Source: Bacillus fonticola (GTDB lineage: Bacteria > Bacillota > Bacilli > Bacillales > JC228). Taken from it: a DNA stretch of 24,000 nt. The position numbers were made by a program, and so were the translations under genes. Numbering within the stretch: position 1 is the stretch's first letter; each line of letters starts with the position of its first letter. The DNA lies in assembly GCF_012955605.1 (NCBI RefSeq), contig NZ_CP052135.1, positions 1,972,711-1,996,710 on the forward strand, given 5' to 3'. Below the pieces are notes generated by a model, which was not told the DNA's origin, made no database searches, and was given only the letters and a program-made list of their open reading frames with translations. Positions 703-13,927 of this stretch are shown here, in pieces.

Positions 703-2757
703 TTATTTTTCTAATTTGTTATACAACGTACGAACCGAAACGCCTAAAGATTTTGCGGCTTCGGTTTTATTTCCGTTATGTGAAGAAATAGCCGACAATA
801 TGCATTGTGTCTCATAGGCACGGACCCGATTCGCTAAGGTATCCTCTTGAGCTTCAGTATACTGATTAATTGGACTAGCTTTACTAAGACGTGGCATTAG
901 AGTAGGTAGATGGCAAAGCGATAATTTCTGTTCATGAAACTCCATAAAAATCATAGCTCGCCCAATTATATTCTCCAACTCTCTTACATTTCCAGGCCAA
1001 TCGTACGCTCGAAGCTGCTCCAAAACGGCCGGATCAACCTCTTCTACGTTCCGACCGTAGTCTTGATTCAACTTCTCAACGAGGCGTAGTACAAGTGCCG
1101 GTAAGTCTTCTTTTCTTTTTTTCAACGGCGGGATATGGATCGGCATTCGACTTAGACGATAGTACAAGTCTTCCCTAAATCTTCCCGCAGACATTTCTTT
1201 TTCTAGATTTACGTTTGTTGCAGAAATAACACGGACGTCTACCGAAATAGGTTTCGTACCTCCAACGCGAACAATTTCCTTTTCTTGAAGTACTCTTAAT
1301 AATTTTGCCTGCGTATGTAGAGGAAGTTCCCCAATTTCATCTAAGAGAATGGTGCCTTTATCAGCCTCTTCAAAGAAGCCTTTTTTACCGCCGCGAGAGG
1401 CACCTGTGAAGGATCCCTCTTCGTACCCGAACAGTTCACTTTCCAGAAGATGTTCGTGGATAGCCGCGCAATTCACACGAATGAACTTGTTATACTTACG
1501 TTCACTTGCATTATGAATAGCATGGGCAAATAGCTCTTTGCCCGTTCCAGACTCCCCCCGTAATAAAATGGTGGCGGGTGTACGTGCTGCAAGTTTTGCC
1601 TGTTCGATAGCTAACACCATTTCTTCTGCTTCTCCAATAATATCTTCAAACGTATATTTTGCTTCCAAAGAACGAATGATACGGCGTGCCCGATGCAACT
1701 CGGTCGTAAGCGACTGAATCTCCGACATATCGTGGATGACCCCAACGCTTCCCTTTAAAATGCCACCAACGATAATGGGAGCAACGTTTACGATTACCTC
1801 TCGTCGTCTTGGTCCCACCTTCATACGAACTCCACGCATTGGTTTTCGTGTTTGCAACACCTTCAGATGAACACTTTCACCTTCAGATATATCTATCGTG
1901 GCTGGTTTTCCGACAACATCTTTTTCACTAAGACCCGTAATTCTTGTATAAGCAGGATTAATTAACAGACCATTTCCTTTGTCATCAACTACTGTAATCG
2001 CATCATCAGAAGAATGAATGATAGCTTGAAGCATCGTGCGAATCTCTTCTAAATTCGTCACTTGCTCTGCTAATTGAACCACTTCAGTGATATCTTTAAA
2101 AACAGCTACCGCCCCAAACAGTACCCCACGATCATCAATGAGCGGGGTACGTGTAGTCACGATTTTTACTCCATTATGTAAAACAAGCTCTTGATTAGCT
2201 TCGGTTCTCTTCGTTTCCAAAACTCTTGGCAAGCCACTGTCTGGTATAACAGATAGTACATGCTGGTGTTGAACTTCTTGTTCACGTATGCCTACCATAC
2301 GTTGAGCACTTTTGTTTACGTAAAGAACTCTTGCTTGTTCATCGACAACGATCATCCCATCATCTGTTGAGTTGAAAATAAGATCCTGTTTAAACGATTG
2401 ATGTCTAAGAGCTTGGATGAGACCTTCCTTCTCTTCCATTAAGCGGGCTAAAATGTAGGCTACACTACCAGGGATCAACACAGTTCGCTTATGCCTTTTG
2501 TCACGAATGGCGCGAAATACGTCTTCTTTCCCTGTTACCTCTATTACAATGTCTATTTCTTTAGTCAAGAAAGCTTCCCATTCTGTGCCCGTAGAAATGC
2601 CAAGAGAAGCCGCCAGCCTCGTGCCAACGGCGTCTTTTTTGAGATCAATGACCCCCACTACTTGGAACGAGTCGGTTTTCGCTAGCATTTTTAAGATCGA
2701 AGTGCCTCCCTGTCCCGCTCCTACAATGAGTACCTTTTGTTTCATAAGGTGTAGCAC
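703..2757 (-). CDS. bkdR: sigma-54-dependent transcriptional activator, BkdR-like (N-terminal GxGxxG domain, PAS domains, AAA+ sigma-54 interaction domain, C-terminal Fis-type HTH)
   Basis: 684-aa ORF. Walker A is GESGTGKE, and ESELFGYEEGSFTGA corresponds to the GAFTGA sigma-54 contact loop. It also has WPGNVRELEN and a C-terminal NKTEAAKSLGVSVRTLYNKL HTH. The track start is GTG at 2757; an ATG at 2745 (MKQKVLIVGAG...) is an equally plausible start. Confidence 0.85.
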   Translation of the reverse strand: MLHLMKQKVLIVGAGQGGTSILKMLAKTDSFQVVGVIDLKKDAVGTRLAASLGISTGTEWEAFLTKEIDIVIEVTGKEDVFRAIRDKRHKRTVLIPGSVAYILARLMEEKEGLIQALRHQSFKQDLIFNSTDDGMIVVDEQARVLYVNKSAQRMVGIREQEVQHQHVLSVIPDSGLPRVLETKRTEANQELVLHNGVKIVTTRTPLIDDRGVLFGAVAVFKDITEVVQLAEQVTNLEEIRTMLQAIIHSSDDAITVVDDKGNGLLINPAYTRITGLSEKDVVGKPATIDISEGESVHLKVLQTRKPMRGVRMKVGPRRREVIVNVAPIIVGGILKGSVGVIHDMSEIQSLTTELHRARRIIRSLEAKYTFEDIIGEAEEMVLAIEQAKLAARTPATILLRGESGTGKELFAHAIHNASERKYNKFIRVNCAAIHEHLLESELFGYEEGSFTGASRGGKKGFFEEADKGTILLDEIGELPLHTQAKLLRVLQEKEIVRVGGTKPISVDVRVISATNVNLEKEMSAGRFREDLYYRLSRMPIHIPPLKKRKEDLPALVLRLVEKLNQDYGRNVEEVDPAVLEQLRAYDWPGNVRELENIIGRAMIFMEFHEQKLSLCHLPTLMPRLSKASPINQYTEAQEDTLANRVRAYETQCILSAISSHNGNKTEAAKSLGVSVRTLYNKLEK

Positions 2758-8996: not shown

Positions 8997-9848
8997 TTAT
9001 CCATCCCGTTTCGGAAAATGTCCATGTGCTTCTTGAACGGTGTCGACTATTTTTTGTTGTTCCGCTTCGTCTAAAACTAGCTCTACATCATCTGAAAAGT
9101 CATTGTCAGGTGTTTCACAATACAGCAGGAATTCAATATTCCCATCTCCGCCAGTGATAGGGGAATACGTGAGACCCTGTATAGAAAATCCTAACTGTTT
9201 GGCAAAAGACAACAGCTCGACCAGCACTTGCTTGTGAACAGAAGCATCCCTCACAATTCCTTTCTTCCCAACGGATTGTTTTCCTGCCTCAAACTGCGGT
9301 TTTACAAGTAAAACACACGGTGACATCGGCTCAGCAATGGCACGAAGCGGCGGGAGGATGTGTCGCAAGGAAATAAACGACACGTCTGCAGTTGCCAAGT
9401 TCGGTCTAGGCCCGTTAAAATCCTCACGAGTAGCATGGCGAAAATTCGTTTTCTCCATAACTGTTACACGCGCATCACTTCGCAGCTTCCAATCCAACTG
9501 GTTCGTTCCAACATCTACAGCATAAGAATGGCTGGCACCGTTTTGGAGGGCACAATCAGTAAATCCACCAGTAGAAGAACCAACATCTAATAAAACTCTA
9601 TCTGTAAGATCCAAAGAAAAATAAGTAATCGCTTTTTCTAGCTTATATCCGCCTCGACTTACGAAAGGGTTCGGATTCCCTTTGACACGTAAAAGGGAAG
9701 AAGACGGAATCTTCTCCCCAGGTTTATCAACACGTGTCTCTTTGTGAAACACAAGCCCGGCCATAATGGCGCGCTTTGCTTTTTCACGAGTCGGAAAATG
9801 CCCTTGTTCGACGAGTAGAGTGTCGACACGTATTTTTGATTCCTTCAT
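8997..9848 (-). CDS. tlyA: TlyA-family rRNA 2'-O-methyltransferase (S4 domain + FtsJ-like methyltransferase; YqxC-like)
   Basis: The N-terminal S4-like RNA-binding region is RVDTLLVEQGHFPTREKAKRAIMAGLV. The SAM-binding motif is VLLDVGSSTGGFTDCALQNGA...AVDVG. The start ATG overlaps the dxs stop by 1 nt (TAATG). Confidence 0.9.
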   Translation of the reverse strand: MKESKIRVDTLLVEQGHFPTREKAKRAIMAGLVFHKETRVDKPGEKIPSSSLLRVKGNPNPFVSRGGYKLEKAITYFSLDLTDRVLLDVGSSTGGFTDCALQNGASHSYAVDVGTNQLDWKLRSDARVTVMEKTNFRHATREDFNGPRPNLATADVSFISLRHILPPLRAIAEPMSPCVLLVKPQFEAGKQSVGKKGIVRDASVHKQVLVELLSFAKQLGFSIQGLTYSPITGGDGNIEFLLYCETPDNDFSDDVELVLDEAEQQKIVDTVQEAHGHFPKRDG

Positions 9849-11743
9849 TAGAGGAACGCTCTTTTCTGTTTCGATTGAACGAGTTGTTGTGCTGTTTCTA
9901 CAGCGTCGTCCACTGTAAGACCGATATCCTCTAAAAGCTTCCCGACACTTCCATGCTCGATAAACTGATCGGGGATTCCCATTCGCCGGATTGGTACATT
10001 TACGCCACGGTCTGAAGCGTACTCAACAATAGCACTCCCGAAACCACCTTGTAAAACGGCCTCCTCCATCGTAATGATTGGCACATTTTCTTTGAACAAC
10101 TGCGCCAACATCGCTTCGTCTAGCGGTTTAATAAAACGGGAATTGATGACACGAGCAGAAATACCTTGCGATTGCAAATTGTCTGCTGCTGCTTCAGCCA
10201 TTTGTACCATAGGCCCCACAGCGAGAAATGCGACATCGCTTCCCTCTCGCACCACTTCCCATGTACCGATCTGGATTTGCTGCAACTCCTCATCTAAAGG
10301 AACCCCGATGCCATTTCCACGCGGAAAACGCATCGCAATTGGACCTGCATTGTATTGTAAGGCTGTATAAACTAAATGTTGTCCTTCATTCTCATCCTTT
10401 GGCATCATTAATACCATGTTCGGAAGGTGTCGTAAAAAGGCAATATCGAACACCCCTTGATGCGTTTCTCCATCAGCCCCAACGAGTCCAGAACGATCAA
10501 TGCCGATAAAAACATTTAAATTTTGCCTACAAATATCATGAACAACTTGATCATACGCACGCTGTAGGAAGGTTGAGTAAATCGCTAAAAACGGCTTCAT
10601 ACCTTGAGTGGCAAGACCTGCAGCAGTCGTTGCCGCATGCTGCTCTGCAATACCTACGTCATACATGCGATCAGGGAATTCCTTTGCAAACCCTTCCAGC
10701 TTAGATCCTACAGGCATTGCCGGTGTAATCGCCACGACACGACGATCTTCTCGTGCTACTTTGAGAACAGTTTCACTTACAAGTGCACTCCAGCCTGGTG
10801 CTCCGGGCTTTGGCTTCACGAAGTCACCGGAGTCGATTTTATATGGCCCGGTACCGTGCCACGTACCAATCGTGTCATTTTCTGCAGGCTTATAACCTTT
10901 GCCTTTTTTCGTAATCGTATGTAACAAGACAGGTCCCTTTGTTTTCTTTGCATAAGCTAAGTTTTCAAATAAGTCTTCATACGAATGTCCATCCACAGGG
11001 CCAAGATACGTAAACCCAAGCTCCTCAAAAAACATGCCTGAGATGAACAAATATTTCAAGCTATCTTTCACACGTTCAGCAGTTTTGGCCATTTTCCCCC
11101 CAACAGCCGGGACCTTTTTCAATAAATAATCTAATTCGTCTTTTACCCAGTGGTATTTCCCTGCTGTACGCAACTTGCCAAGGACATTATGAAGAGCACC
11201 TACGTTAGGCGCAATGGACATTTCATTATCATTTAAAATAACGATCATATCTTTTTGTTCATGCCCAATATGGTTCAGTGCTTCTAGAGCCATTCCACCA
11301 GTTAATGCACCATCACCGATGACAGGCAGAATATAGGAGGATTCTTTTTTGACATCGCGAGCAATTGCCATACCCATAGCTGCAGAGAGACTTGTTGAAC
11401 TATGACCTGTTTCCCATACATCGTGTTCGCTTTCATTTCGTTTCGGAAATCCGCACAGACCTTGGTATTCTCGGAGGCTGCCAAAATCCTGTGCACGTCC
11501 AGTCAAAATCTTGTGTACATACGATTGGTGTCCAACATCCCATAAGATTTTATCTTTCGGACTGTCGAACATTTTATGAAGCGCGACTGTAAGTTCCACA
11601 ACGCCTAGATTGGGACCGATGTGACCACCTGTAACAGAGCACTTTTCAATAAGAAATCGGCGAATTTCCTCACTAAGTGCCTCAAGTTCGCTCATGTTCA
11701 TGTTCTTTAAAAAAGAAGGATTCTGAATCGATGTAAGATCCAT
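9848..11743 (-). CDS. dxs: 1-deoxy-D-xylulose-5-phosphate synthase
   Basis: [59 protein letters not shown]...[15 protein letters not shown] is the typical Dxs N-terminus. The TPP-binging motif [15 protein letters not shown] is present. The ORF track extends 33 codons further to 11842, but that extension overlaps the upstream gene and has no homology. I place the start at ATG 11743. Confidence 0.95.
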
Positions 11744-11754
11744 CCTAATACAAC

Positions 11755-12360
11755 TCACTTTCTTTTCTTTTTCCTGTTCTTTATTTTCGGATCTACAAGC
11801 ACTGTTATATAAAATCGTTCCTCTAGCAACTGAAGAACGCACCCTACTCTTAGAATAATGTTTTTAGAAAATTTAATAGCAATCGTTTTCCCTAATGCTT
11901 TCCCTCCCACAGTAAGTGCTGCGATGAAGCTTGTTAACAGCACATTCAGCCCGTCTTCAAGAGAGGCATTGTTCCCTTCTTGTATTGAATGGGTTAACGT
12001 AACTATGACAGTTGCTGAAGCTGCCCCTGAAATAATACCCGAAATATCCCCAATCACATCGTTACAAAAACTAGAAAATCGATCAGCATTTTTTACAATT
12101 CTGAGACTATGCTTTGCACCGTACACTTTCCTTGACGCCATCGCGTGAAAGGGAGATTCGTCGGCAGCCGCTGCTGCCATCCCCATCATATCAAATACTA
12201 CACCGATTAAGACGATAATGAATACGACCCCTAAACCCAACGTCCAAGTTAAACTGCCTAGCAACGTGTTGGAAATCATTGAAAAAAGAGCCGCTAACAC
12301 GAACGTGATAACGGCGATACTCATACTCCATTTCAGCGAGGTAAGAATGACTTTTTTCAT
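11755..12360 (-). CDS. oapA: four-TM membrane protein, candidate OLE-associated protein A (OapA)
   Basis: 201 aa (about 21-22 kDa). Four predicted TM helices: [70 protein letters not shown] and [20 protein letters not shown]. The C-terminal tail is strongly basic ([10 protein letters not shown]). It lies immediately downstream of the large noncoding region and upstream of dxs, the described position of oapA in B. halodurans. Assignment rests on context and topology, not on an alignment. Confidence 0.72.
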
Positions 12361-13039
12361 TTATGGGTCATACTCCAGTACTATGTGAAATTATAGGAAA
12401 TAGAAGACAAACGTCTTCCTCCAGTTATTCTCTTCTCTTAGATTTTGAATGGTCACATGAAGAGGTAATCTTACGGCTTAGGTCCAGTAGGATTTCCCAC
12501 CCTTCCACCTGATGTCACCATACAGGCGGTTCCCCTTTCAGGAAGAGTTAGCGTCGTTGCCGATCACTAGACTGGATTGCCACTTAGTCCGTACCACAAC
12601 TCCCTACATGCTTCAAATTGAACAGTCTAGGAGTTTTCCTCGGGCAGTTCTTACCGTAAATTAGCCTATTTTGCAAAATAGGGAGCGCATGGTCAAGTAT
12701 ATCATCACAAAGGTGGCCACCTTTTGATGTTGATCCATGCTCCTCACAACGGTTTTGCGCAAGGCAGGCTGCGCTCTGAACTTTCAATCCCCATTTGTAA
12801 AGTACAGCGCATCTATGACCCGTAATCTTCGGGGTCTTTAGTACCCTTGAGTGGATTTTTAGCCCCACCTTCCAATACGGAGAACCGACTAGAATACTGC
12901 ACCATCCAATTTGCATAAAAGTATACCACACCCGAAAAACTGTGTCACTTTTCACGGCAAAGTTGTGGTAAAAAAACCACCATTATCCTTTTTTTCACAA
13001 AGCAACAATCCTCAGGAAAATACATGACAGCACGCAGGT
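12361..13039 (-). ncRNA. ole: OLE (ornate, large, extremophilic) RNA candidate; exact 5'/3' ends undetermined within this gap (described RNA is roughly 600 nt)
   Basis: This is a 679-nt gap with no credible ORF inside a tightly packed co-directional operon. The order ispA / gap / 4-TM protein / dxs matches the described ole-oapA locus. Minus-strand stem-loops are dense: 12403-12418 (GAAGAC/GUCUUC), 12665-12682 (18-nt perfect palindrome CCUAUUUUGCAAAAUAGG), 12703-12729 (13-bp stem around AAAGGUGGCCACCUUU), 12757-12774 (GCGCA/UGCGC), 12817-12836 (GACCC/GGGUC) and 12965-12980 (GUGGU-U-rich loop-ACCAC). A possible long-range pairing joins 12841-12854 to 12580-12594. No terminator or promoter separates it from ispA. 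Confidence 0.8.
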
Positions 13040-13927
13040 TCAATTCTGCCTGTTTTGAATAAGTTGAGCTAAGTACATCAGTTCGTTACTTTTTACCTTC
13101 GCTTCCTCCAAAGCTCTTAGTGCCGCGACTACCTCTTCATGCAGGTGGGCCTTCGCTCCCTCAAGACCAAGGAGCCCTGGATAGGTACTTTTCTCGTTCA
13201 CCATGTCACTGCCTATATTTTTACCAAGCGTTCTGGCATTCCCTTCCACATCTAAAATGTCGTCTTGAATTTGAAAGGCCAGGCCGAGGTGATGACTGAA
13301 GAGTACGAGCGCTTCCTTTTGCGTAATTTCAGCCTCAGCTAGAATGCAGCCTGCCTCCACAGCATATGTAAGAAGCCTTCCTGTTTTTTTACGATGAATG
13401 GCTTGAAGTTCATCCACTAAGACAGTCCGTTTTTCAGCTTCCATATCTTCTATTTGTCCTGCCACCATCCCTTGTGCTCCAGCGGCATCTGAAAAAGCAG
13501 AAATAAGTTGCACTTTTTGAGCATCAGTTACCTCAGCTTGCGCCACTAAAGAAAAACCCTGTGTGAGAAGGGCATCACCTGCAAGAATCGCAGTCGCTTC
13601 TCCGAATACCTTATGGTTTGTGGGCTTCCCTCGACGTAAATCATCGTCATCCATACTCGGAAGGTCATCGTGTATTAACGAATACGTATGAATCATCTCT
13701 AACGCAGCGGCTACAGGGATGGATTGTTCGATCTGTTTACCCAGTGCTTTCACAGTGGCTAATAAAAGTAAAGGGCGAATGCGCTTCCCCCCCGCTTGCA
13801 AACTATAGAGCATTGCCTTTTGGAGGGAGGAAGGAGTTGTTAAACTTTGAACGTGTTCTAACATAAAACGTTCTGTTTGTTCCTTCCATTCTTGTAGCGT
13901 TTGTTCAGTTTTTTTAACTGATGTCAC
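13040..13927 (-). CDS. ispA: farnesyl diphosphate synthase (polyprenyl synthetase)
   Basis: The first aspartate-rich motif is LIHDDLPSMDDDDLRRGKPTNH and the second is FQIQDDILD. GTG start overlaps the xseB stop (GTGA). Confidence 0.93.
   Translation of the reverse strand: MTSVKKTEQTLQEWKEQTERFMLEHVQSLTTPSSLQKAMLYSLQAGGKRIRPLLLLATVKALGKQIEQSIPVAAALEMIHTYSLIHDDLPSMDDDDLRRGKPTNHKVFGEATAILAGDALLTQGFSLVAQAEVTDAQKVQLISAFSDAAGAQGMVAGQIEDMEAEKRTVLVDELQAIHRKKTGRLLTYAVEAGCILAEAEITQKEALVLFSHHLGLAFQIQDDILDVEGNARTLGKNIGSDMVNEKSTYPGLLGLEGAKAHLHEEVVAALRALEEAKVKSNELMYLAQLIQNRQN

Follow-up and report, generated by a model that had tools for sequence, protein, structure and literature searches.

OapA of Bacillus fonticola: an ordinary ortholog encoded beside a shortened OLE RNA

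A 24,000-nucleotide stretch of the Bacillus fonticola genome (contig NZ_CP052135.1, positions 1,972,711 to 1,996,710; hereafter the window, whose own numbering is used throughout) carries on its minus strand a gene for a 201-residue protein, located between ispA and dxs and directly downstream of a gene for OLE RNA. We are highly confident that this gene is oapA, the gene of OLE-associated protein A, and that its product is an ordinary ortholog: a four-helix inner-membrane protein with a CNNM-like fold, most likely acting as does the OapA of Halalkalibacterium halodurans. A sequence-only reading of the same DNA had put the protein forward as a candidate OapA membrane partner of OLE; orthology, retention of the family motif, fold, synteny, and co-occurrence with OLE, all established here, bear this out. 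The system is of a kind already known, an ordinary OapA ortholog in its canonical locus (Breaker laboratory, 2006-2025). Descriptions of the ole-oapA pair and of its setting in the ispA/dxs cluster go back to 2006, a survey of the family across GTDB exists, and little is added here as discovery. What can be given is a name: a ‘hypothetical protein’ that is invisible to Pfam and NCBIfam (WP_170007613.1) can be called OapA with confidence. In addition, the combination of an intact OapA with a reduced OLE is a possible natural deletion experiment on P5.1/P6.1 dimerisation, on the binding of OapC to its kink-turn (k-turn), and on membrane insertion.

Orthology of the oapA gene and its association with OLE

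The reference for this comparison is BH2780, the protein to which the name OapA is given in the literature (PMC7936274). Its cluster was reached by a second homology search, seeded with an Alkalihalobacillus ortholog, and BH2780 was then identified through cluster membership (BAB06499.1 / Q9K970; also WP_010898928.1, H. halodurans C-125). In BLASTP, the B. fonticola protein and BH2780 align without gaps over residues 8-201 (194 of the 201), with 53% identity, 74% positives, and an E-value of 2e-72; the comparison with this protein, which the sequence-only reading had suggested under the species name B. halodurans, thus came out in favor of the proposed identity. The alignment is offset by one residue and matches D101 and D105 to D100 and D104, the pair of aspartates that is changed in PM1, a dominant-negative mutant of OapA (PMC9723947). 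The DxxxD motif has been described as distinctive of OapA (PMC11332333). To judge from its sequence, the window protein has every hallmark of OapA and fails none that can be tested at this level, and nothing seen contradicts orthology.

An exhaustive profile search over 1.84 billion cluster representatives returned 1236 related clusters at E<=1e-3, and 388 at E<=1e-30. The best 150 of these are nearly all short (about 120-275 residues), with one of 355. Conservation was counted in 66 diverse members, which are 33-62% identical to the query: D101, G104, G112, K154, and K158 are invariant, and D57, D105, S111, T150, G153, and A155 are nearly so. The acidic residues of the motif are found in 66 of 66 (D101) and 65 of 66 members (D105), and D57 also in 65 of 66. 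A second motif, TVGGKAxGK, lies in the fourth transmembrane (TM) helix, and both of its lysines, K154 and K158, occur in 66/66 members. The segment E68-G108, which had been called conserved-looking from the single sequence, is indeed the best conserved part of the family.

Association with OLE was examined in a survey of one genome per species in GTDB r232, from which the best 80 of at least 592 loci with OapA relatives were taken. These 80 loci cover the Bacillaceae, Paenibacillaceae, Thermoactinomycetaceae, and several Clostridia. With the window OLE as nhmmer query, an OLE-like sequence was found upstream of oapA and on the same strand in every one of them (80/80), ending between a few tens and about 230 nt before the gene. 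Rfam RF01071 confirmed OLE in each of the 20 loci ranked lowest (L061-L080, Clostridia included), with scores of 470-558 bits. The predicted co-occurrence of the family with OLE therefore holds in the 80 best-scoring loci. The survey ran in the direction from OapA to OLE; near-complete mutual inclusion of the two has been reported in the literature. The gene ispA is upstream in 80/80 loci, and dxs downstream in 61/80.

In the window itself, OLE is the sole RNA family found by Rfam. It matches at 12433..12921 on the minus strand (RF01071, 253.3 bits, E = 6e-71, model positions 1-616), and its 3′ end is separated by 72 nt from the ATG of oapA at 12360, on the same strand. The earlier reading had assigned the whole interval 12361-13039 to the RNA. 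OLE is present directly upstream of oapA, as claimed, but the match covers 12433-12921 and does not fill the interval.

The coding sequence of oapA runs from 11755 to 12360 on the minus strand, from an ATG start (open reading frame (ORF) list), and specifies 201 amino acids plus the stop, as the sequence-only reading had it, down to the peptide quoted. The product has a mass of 21.6 kDa and an isoelectric point of 9.9. Since only about 0.06 ORFs of such length are expected by chance (six frames, 43% G+C window) and 5075 database proteins match the product at E<=1e-3, the ORF is a real gene; a chance ORF at this position was ruled out by this expectation together with the thousands of homologs. 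The N-termini of homologs align starting at residue 1, and a Shine-Dalgarno-like GGAG read from the sequence lies 12 nt upstream of the ATG (12373..12376, minus). At the other end, the stop codon (11755-11757) is followed by an 11-nt intergenic gap before the dxs ATG at 11743. This spacing had been claimed before, and it is upheld by the conserved start of Dxs (MDLTSIQ…), which is common to its homologs. A GTG at 11842, which would make dxs overlap oapA, was considered as an alternative start and rejected, homologous Dxs proteins aligning from the ATG at 11743. The database entry identical to the oapA product (100%) is WP_170007613.1, a ‘hypothetical protein’ of Bacillus fonticola.

Fold, topology, and proposed function

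Kyte-Doolittle hydropathy (19-residue window) gives two strong peaks, at residues ~12-30 (2.1) and ~41-59 (2.7), and two moderate ones, at ~102-120 (1.7) and ~138-156 (1.6). An AlphaFold2 model of the monomer, built from the alignment of the 66 diverse relatives, has a mean predicted local distance difference test (pLDDT) of 93.1 and a predicted TM-score (pTM) of 0.83. It contains four long helices of 27-36 residues each (2-35, 39-65, 92-127, and 132-163), two short helices (68-76 and 82-90), an amphipathic helix (165-183), and a short terminal helix (191-200). The four hydrophobic helices announced by the sequence-only reading thus have a counterpart both in the four hydropathy peaks and in the four membrane-length helices of the model. 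From the two together, the predicted TM helices comprise residues ~11-35 (12256..12330), ~39-65, which carries D57 (12166..12246), ~92-127 (11980..12087), and ~132-163, which carries TVGGKAxGK (11872..11967), all on the minus strand. The chain ends after the fourth of these with one amphipathic helix and the basic tail, and no Pfam domain was found in it.

The conserved segment E68-G108 (12037..12159, minus) is modeled with pLDDT values of 96-98 and consists of the two short helices, with K78, K83, K90, and R94, followed by the start of TM3. The DxxxD codons (D101-V-I-G-D105, equivalent to D100/D104 of H. halodurans OapA) occupy 12046..12060, and the polybasic C-terminal tail, residues 192-201 as read from the sequence, occupies 11758..11787, both on the minus strand. 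Averaged over the 66 relatives, net charge amounts to +3.9 at the N-terminus, +3.2 in the loop 66-94, -0.3 in the loop 124-137, and +4.3 in the C-terminal tail. Because of this positive-inside distribution, the most likely topology is one of four spans in which both ends and the conserved segment 66-94 are predicted to be cytoplasmic (N-in/C-in).

In a Foldseek comparison of the model with the PDB, the top four matches were all chains of MtCorB, an archaeal CNNM transporter (7m1t, 7m1u), with probabilities of 0.99-1.00, query-normalised TM-scores of 0.41-0.52, 147-171 aligned columns, and 16-17% identity; all remaining matches had probabilities of at most 0.15. The likeness of the modeled OapA to the CNNM fold is moderate, not close. 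That a CNNM protein is the best structural relative does not refute the OapA assignment, because OapA has been published as a distant relative of the CNNM domain (PMC11332333). The sequence-only reading had named a best match to an unrelated transporter family without OLE as contrary evidence; what was found instead is a likeness already published for OapA, with OLE in 80/80 loci.

Functional data on OapA come from other groups and from H. halodurans only, as regards RNA binding, membrane localisation, and phenotypes. According to a recent article summarising Block et al. (2011), H. halodurans OapA binds OLE RNA cooperatively and near P2 and P4a, with two or more protein molecules per RNA, and is needed for localisation of OLE to the membrane in the surrogate Escherichia coli (PMC12265935). 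In H. halodurans, OapA is needed for tolerance of cold, of about 5% ethanol, and of Mg2+ above 2 mM, as well as for growth on non-preferred carbon sources (PMC9723947; PMC11332333; PMC12265935). In recent models based on cryo-electron microscopy (cryo-EM), it has been proposed that OLE RNA spans the membrane beside OapA (PMC12265935).

By orthology, the same RNA binding, localisation, and phenotypes are most likely to hold in B. fonticola. The protein would assemble as a dimer or higher oligomer and bind the OLE RNA of its own operon cooperatively near P2 and P4a; this binding would localise the RNA to the membrane, and the ribonucleoprotein (RNP) would then help cells to grow on poor carbon sources and to withstand stress from cold, excess Mg2+, or short-chain alcohols. 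The functional core would probably consist of the intramembrane DxxxD motif, D57, and the invariant K154 and K158, and would be a putative divalent-cation site, as in CNNM relatives. Formation of such a site in the membrane is plausible because of D57, N100, D101, D105, S111, and T150 together with the CNNM-like fold; the divalent-cation site of OapA is also unproven in the literature. It is a suspicion, and not a claim, that K154 of GGKAxGK replaces the Mg2+-coordinating glutamate of the CNNM motif GExxPK. As for the RNA, a specific contact would more likely be made by the conserved cytoplasmic basic residues, whereas the contribution of the variable polybasic tail would be limited to non-specific electrostatic affinity or to setting the topology.

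The shortened OLE RNA and alternative explanations

The OLE of the window is 489 nt long and scores 253 bits, vs about 600-690 nt and 470-558 bits by Rfam for 22 other loci (L061-L080, the nearest relative L083 at 829-1445, and L002 at 2331-2947). Judging by the pattern of nhmmer matches, all 80 surveyed loci have an extra ~130-240 nt relative to it. In Bacillus sp. AK031, the closest relative found (OapA 68% identical), OLE is of full length and scores 540 bits. The short form is unlikely to be a one-off assembly error, because the 679-nt spacer between ispA and oapA is identical in three assemblies (100% identity in two others, one from ENA and one from Logan).

The missing parts were read from the cmscan alignments and from a MAFFT alignment with the closest relatives. 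The window OLE lacks model positions ~83-139, which hold a conserved joining region, AUCGAUGAAG, and a long hairpin with a GCCCA loop. In the hairpin that follows, the distal portion and its CAAUGGCAUG loop have given way to a short GACCC…GGGUC stem. A further hairpin, at model positions ~242-277, is absent as well, and the stem lying between these last two elements is shortened. Still present are P4, P9 with a GGCC loop, the block GGUGCAGUAUUCUAGUC of the 5′ core, a further block, CUCCUAGACUGUUC, and all of the 3′ domain. A single-sequence fold of the remodeled segment was not significant (z = -0.94).

In the published secondary structure, J4a/5, P5, and J5/6 span nucleotides 83-147, P4 has an A-rich loop, and P9 is a long stem with a palindromic loop (PMC9723947; PMC12265935). 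Mapped from this text, the missing elements would correspond to J4a/5 with P5/P5.1, to P6.1 (its loop), and to P8, with P7 shortened. The literature reports intermolecular P5.1/P6.1 kissing loops in cryo-EM dimers, and J4a/5-P5 forms the k-turn site of OapC. Should the mapping be correct, the k-turn site was lost along with the two elements that form the intermolecular kissing loops. Published bit-score classes include a variant 2, of 235-310 bits and lacking P7 and P8, and a variant 1 with short P7-P9. At 253 bits the window OLE would fall within the range of variant 2, but on the above mapping it has lost P5/P6.1, and the published scores come from a different model; its deletion pattern differs from those of both variants. 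In the supplement text of PMC11332333 that was searched for its OLE class, B. fonticola is not listed.

Several observations qualify the assignment. The partner OLE of the protein is atypically short, and the RNP here may differ from the H. halodurans paradigm. The topology is derived from hydropathy, charge bias, and a model of the monomer, and published models leave the orientation, the stoichiometry, and ion transport by OapA undecided (PMC12265935). Moreover, the curated Pfam and NCBIfam models do not recognise the protein: Pfam at E<=10 gave only noise (DUF2975, E = 7.6), as did NCBIfam at E<=1 (HU-beta, E = 0.058), and both of these identities were rejected as such. No solved OapA was present in the copy of the PDB searched, and CorB/CorC lie beyond reach by sequence; only chance matches were returned there by the single sequence (GAPDH, HU; E>=0.18) and by the profile of the 66 members (herpesvirus gL; E>=0.28). 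Since there is neither a curated model nor a solved structure, membership in the family rests on pairwise and profile homology together with context.

The short RNA could mean that OapA is decaying or released here, OLE having lost about 130 nt of conserved structure and the RNP being defunct, with the ORF surviving by chance or in another role. The low score and length of OLE relative to other loci, the absence of P5/P5.1, the P6.1 loop, and P8, and the rare defective ole genes of the literature (PMC11332333) point in this direction. However, those defective genes occur in organisms without OapA, and OapA is present here with an intact ORF and with all residues that are invariant in the family. 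The divergence of OapA relative to Dxs is in the normal range (residual -0.033 vs a standard deviation of 0.056; rank 8/59), so that abnormally fast evolution of OapA, which might have been expected given a truncated RNA partner, was rejected with a residual within one standard deviation. Decay, which we regard as very improbable, is also opposed by what OLE retains (the near-invariant blocks, P4, P9 with the GGCC loop, and all of the 3′ domain), by the identity of the short locus in three assemblies, and by the functionality ascribed to published natural short variants. As a tentative proposal, and one that we hold to be less likely than not, the pairing of an ordinary OapA with a naturally reduced but functional OLE might represent a minimal OapA-compatible architecture in a free-living member of the Bacillaceae. 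If the reduced RNP is functional, it would follow that OapA can work without the P5.1/P6.1 dimer contacts and without the docking of OapC.

A different explanation concerns the protein: it would be a stand-alone Mg2+/Co2+ transporter of the CNNM/CorB/MpfA type, next to OLE by accident and with no RNA role. Some relatives are named in databases as ‘CNNM transmembrane domain-containing protein’, ‘Mg2+ and Co2+ transporter CorB’, or ‘CBS domain containing-hemolysin-like protein’; 42 of the 66 relatives match the Pfam CNNM family PF01595 weakly (best E = 3.8e-07), and MtCorB is the only convincing fold match. The window protein, however, has no match to PF01595 even at E<=10, and at just 201 residues it has no CBS or CorC/HlyC domain detectable by Pfam. 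It possesses the DxxxD motif, which CNNM domains do not have, and four helices rather than three; all 80 relatives lie directly downstream of OLE, and the H. halodurans ortholog binds OLE RNA biochemically (PMC12265935). By score the protein is outside the Pfam CNNM family, and by architecture it is outside MpfA/CorB/CorC. We consider this explanation extremely unlikely, the least probable of those weighed here; what is disfavored is only the lack of an RNA role, and ion handling may form part of OapA function. Within the OapA identification, it may also be asked which part of the protein touches the RNA. The sequence-only reading had considered the K/R-rich C-terminus suited to this, and the tail might be the principal RNA-contacting element: it is real, with 8 K/R in the last 18 residues, it is K/R-rich in BH2780 (KKKKEKNSRK) and in most Bacillaceae relatives, its net charge is at least +3 in 47/66 diverse members, and the positive-inside rule predicts it to be cytoplasmic. 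On the other hand, its sequence is not conserved, its net charge is below +3 in 19/66 members, and in two of the 66 the chain stops at the last helix, while in three more it extends just one residue further. Termini rich in K/R also commonly serve to set the topology of membrane proteins. The conserved basic positions K78, K83, K/R90, K154, and K158 lie outside the tail (K154 and K158 in 66/66 members; K or R at positions 78 and 90 in 61/66 each). The literature favors, as the likely site of OLE binding, a conserved cluster of basic residues facing the cytoplasm (PMC12265935). In the window protein the conserved K/R at 78, 83, 90, and 94 and K154/K158 are present, and the charge bias would place them inside. 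A principal role for the tail thus seems doubtful and a role as specificity determinant unlikely; it may add non-specific affinity or simply enforce topology.

Genomic setting and comparison with known systems

Upstream of OLE, ispA, encoding a polyprenyl synthetase, lies at 13040..13927 (minus; PF00348, E = 4.5e-63), and dxs follows oapA at 9848..11743 (minus; PF13292, PF02779, PF02780), which confirms the placement between these two genes given by the sequence-only reading. The minus-strand order according to Pfam is a gene of the Asp23 family, nusB, folD, xseA, xseB, ispA, OLE, and oapA, followed by dxs, an FtsJ/S4 methyltransferase gene (tlyA/yqxC-like), argR, recN, spoIVB, and spo0A. On the Bacillus subtilis map, ispA and dxs are adjacent; a check of the literature for this adjacency confirmed only the dxs-yqxC-ahrC-recN operon. 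The order ispA-ole-oapA-dxs agrees with that of the published ole cluster (PMC12265935).

In 19 of the 80 surveyed loci, dxs was not found within 3 kb downstream of oapA, with ispA-OLE-oapA kept, which indicates that the oapA-dxs junction is less fixed than the ole-oapA junction. These loci, which include L023, L026-L028, L031, L034, L038, L043-L045, L049, L050, L058-L060, L067, L069, and L080, belong mostly to Virgibacillus, Lentibacillus, Oceanobacillus, and related genera. In L069, from a Pseudogracilibacillus metagenome-assembled genome, a Bacillaceae-1 small RNA (RF01690, 46.8 bits) was found between ispA and OLE at 2052-2116 (+). Another locus, L006 (JAGGRA010000014.1), is titled Pseudomonas sp. 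ISL-84 and has a Bacillaceae-type ispA-OLE-oapA-dxs arrangement, with OapA 60% and Dxs 79% identical to those of the window. It is probably a mislabeled or contaminated assembly; such OLE matches outside the Bacillota are attributed in the literature to errors of assembly or taxonomy.

Within the window, a promoter-like site is present at 12920-12948 on the minus strand (GTGACA, 17 nt, TG-TATACT; 10/12 matches), with its -10 hexamer ending on the first nucleotide of the OLE match. The site might serve ole-oapA as a promoter of its own, besides read-through from ispA; promoter-like sites in the region were not above the shuffled expectation (4 found vs 2.9). A weak terminator-like hairpin at 12402-12419 (minus), past the 3′ end of OLE but ahead of oapA, consists of GGAAGACGTTTGTCTTCT followed by ATTTCCTATA. 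Because its T-run is poor, it may be an OLE 3′-end or processing structure instead of a terminator. A mechanically called ORF of 123 amino acids with a GTG start (12584-12955, minus) lies almost wholly within the OLE RNA and on its strand, and is almost certainly not a gene. At the edge of the window, on the opposite strand, an ORF of 159 amino acids (103-582, plus) had no Pfam match at E<=1e-5.

Among known systems, two are close enough to OapA of B. fonticola to be compared with it. The CNNM/DUF21 proteins (CorB, CorC, MpfA; e.g., MtCorB, 7M1T and 7M1U) share a similar helical membrane fold. In CorB, CorC, and MpfA, a CNNM domain with three TM helices is followed by a CBS pair and usually by a CorC/HlyC domain, whereas the window protein is without CBS and CorC/HlyC domains, has four helices, carries DxxxD, is without the conserved CNNM proline, and is partnered with an RNA. 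MpfA overlaps with OapA in its Mg2+-sensitivity phenotypes, and its phylogenetic distribution is anticorrelated with that of OapA (PMC11332333).

The second is OapA of H. halodurans itself. It is of like size (200 residues vs 201 here; 21 kDa as published vs 21.6 kDa) and shares the position of DxxxD, the TVGGKAxGK motif, the basic C-terminal tail, and four predicted TM helices. Its gene is also directly downstream of ole, within nusB-folD-xseA-xseB-ispA-ole-oapA-dxs-tlyA-argR-recN. The B. fonticola protein differs in coming from another species and in a few lineage-specific substitutions (e.g., K174C) at positions that are nearly invariant in close Bacillaceae relatives. Its OLE partner, finally, is about 130 nt shorter than in loci of the H. 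halodurans type.

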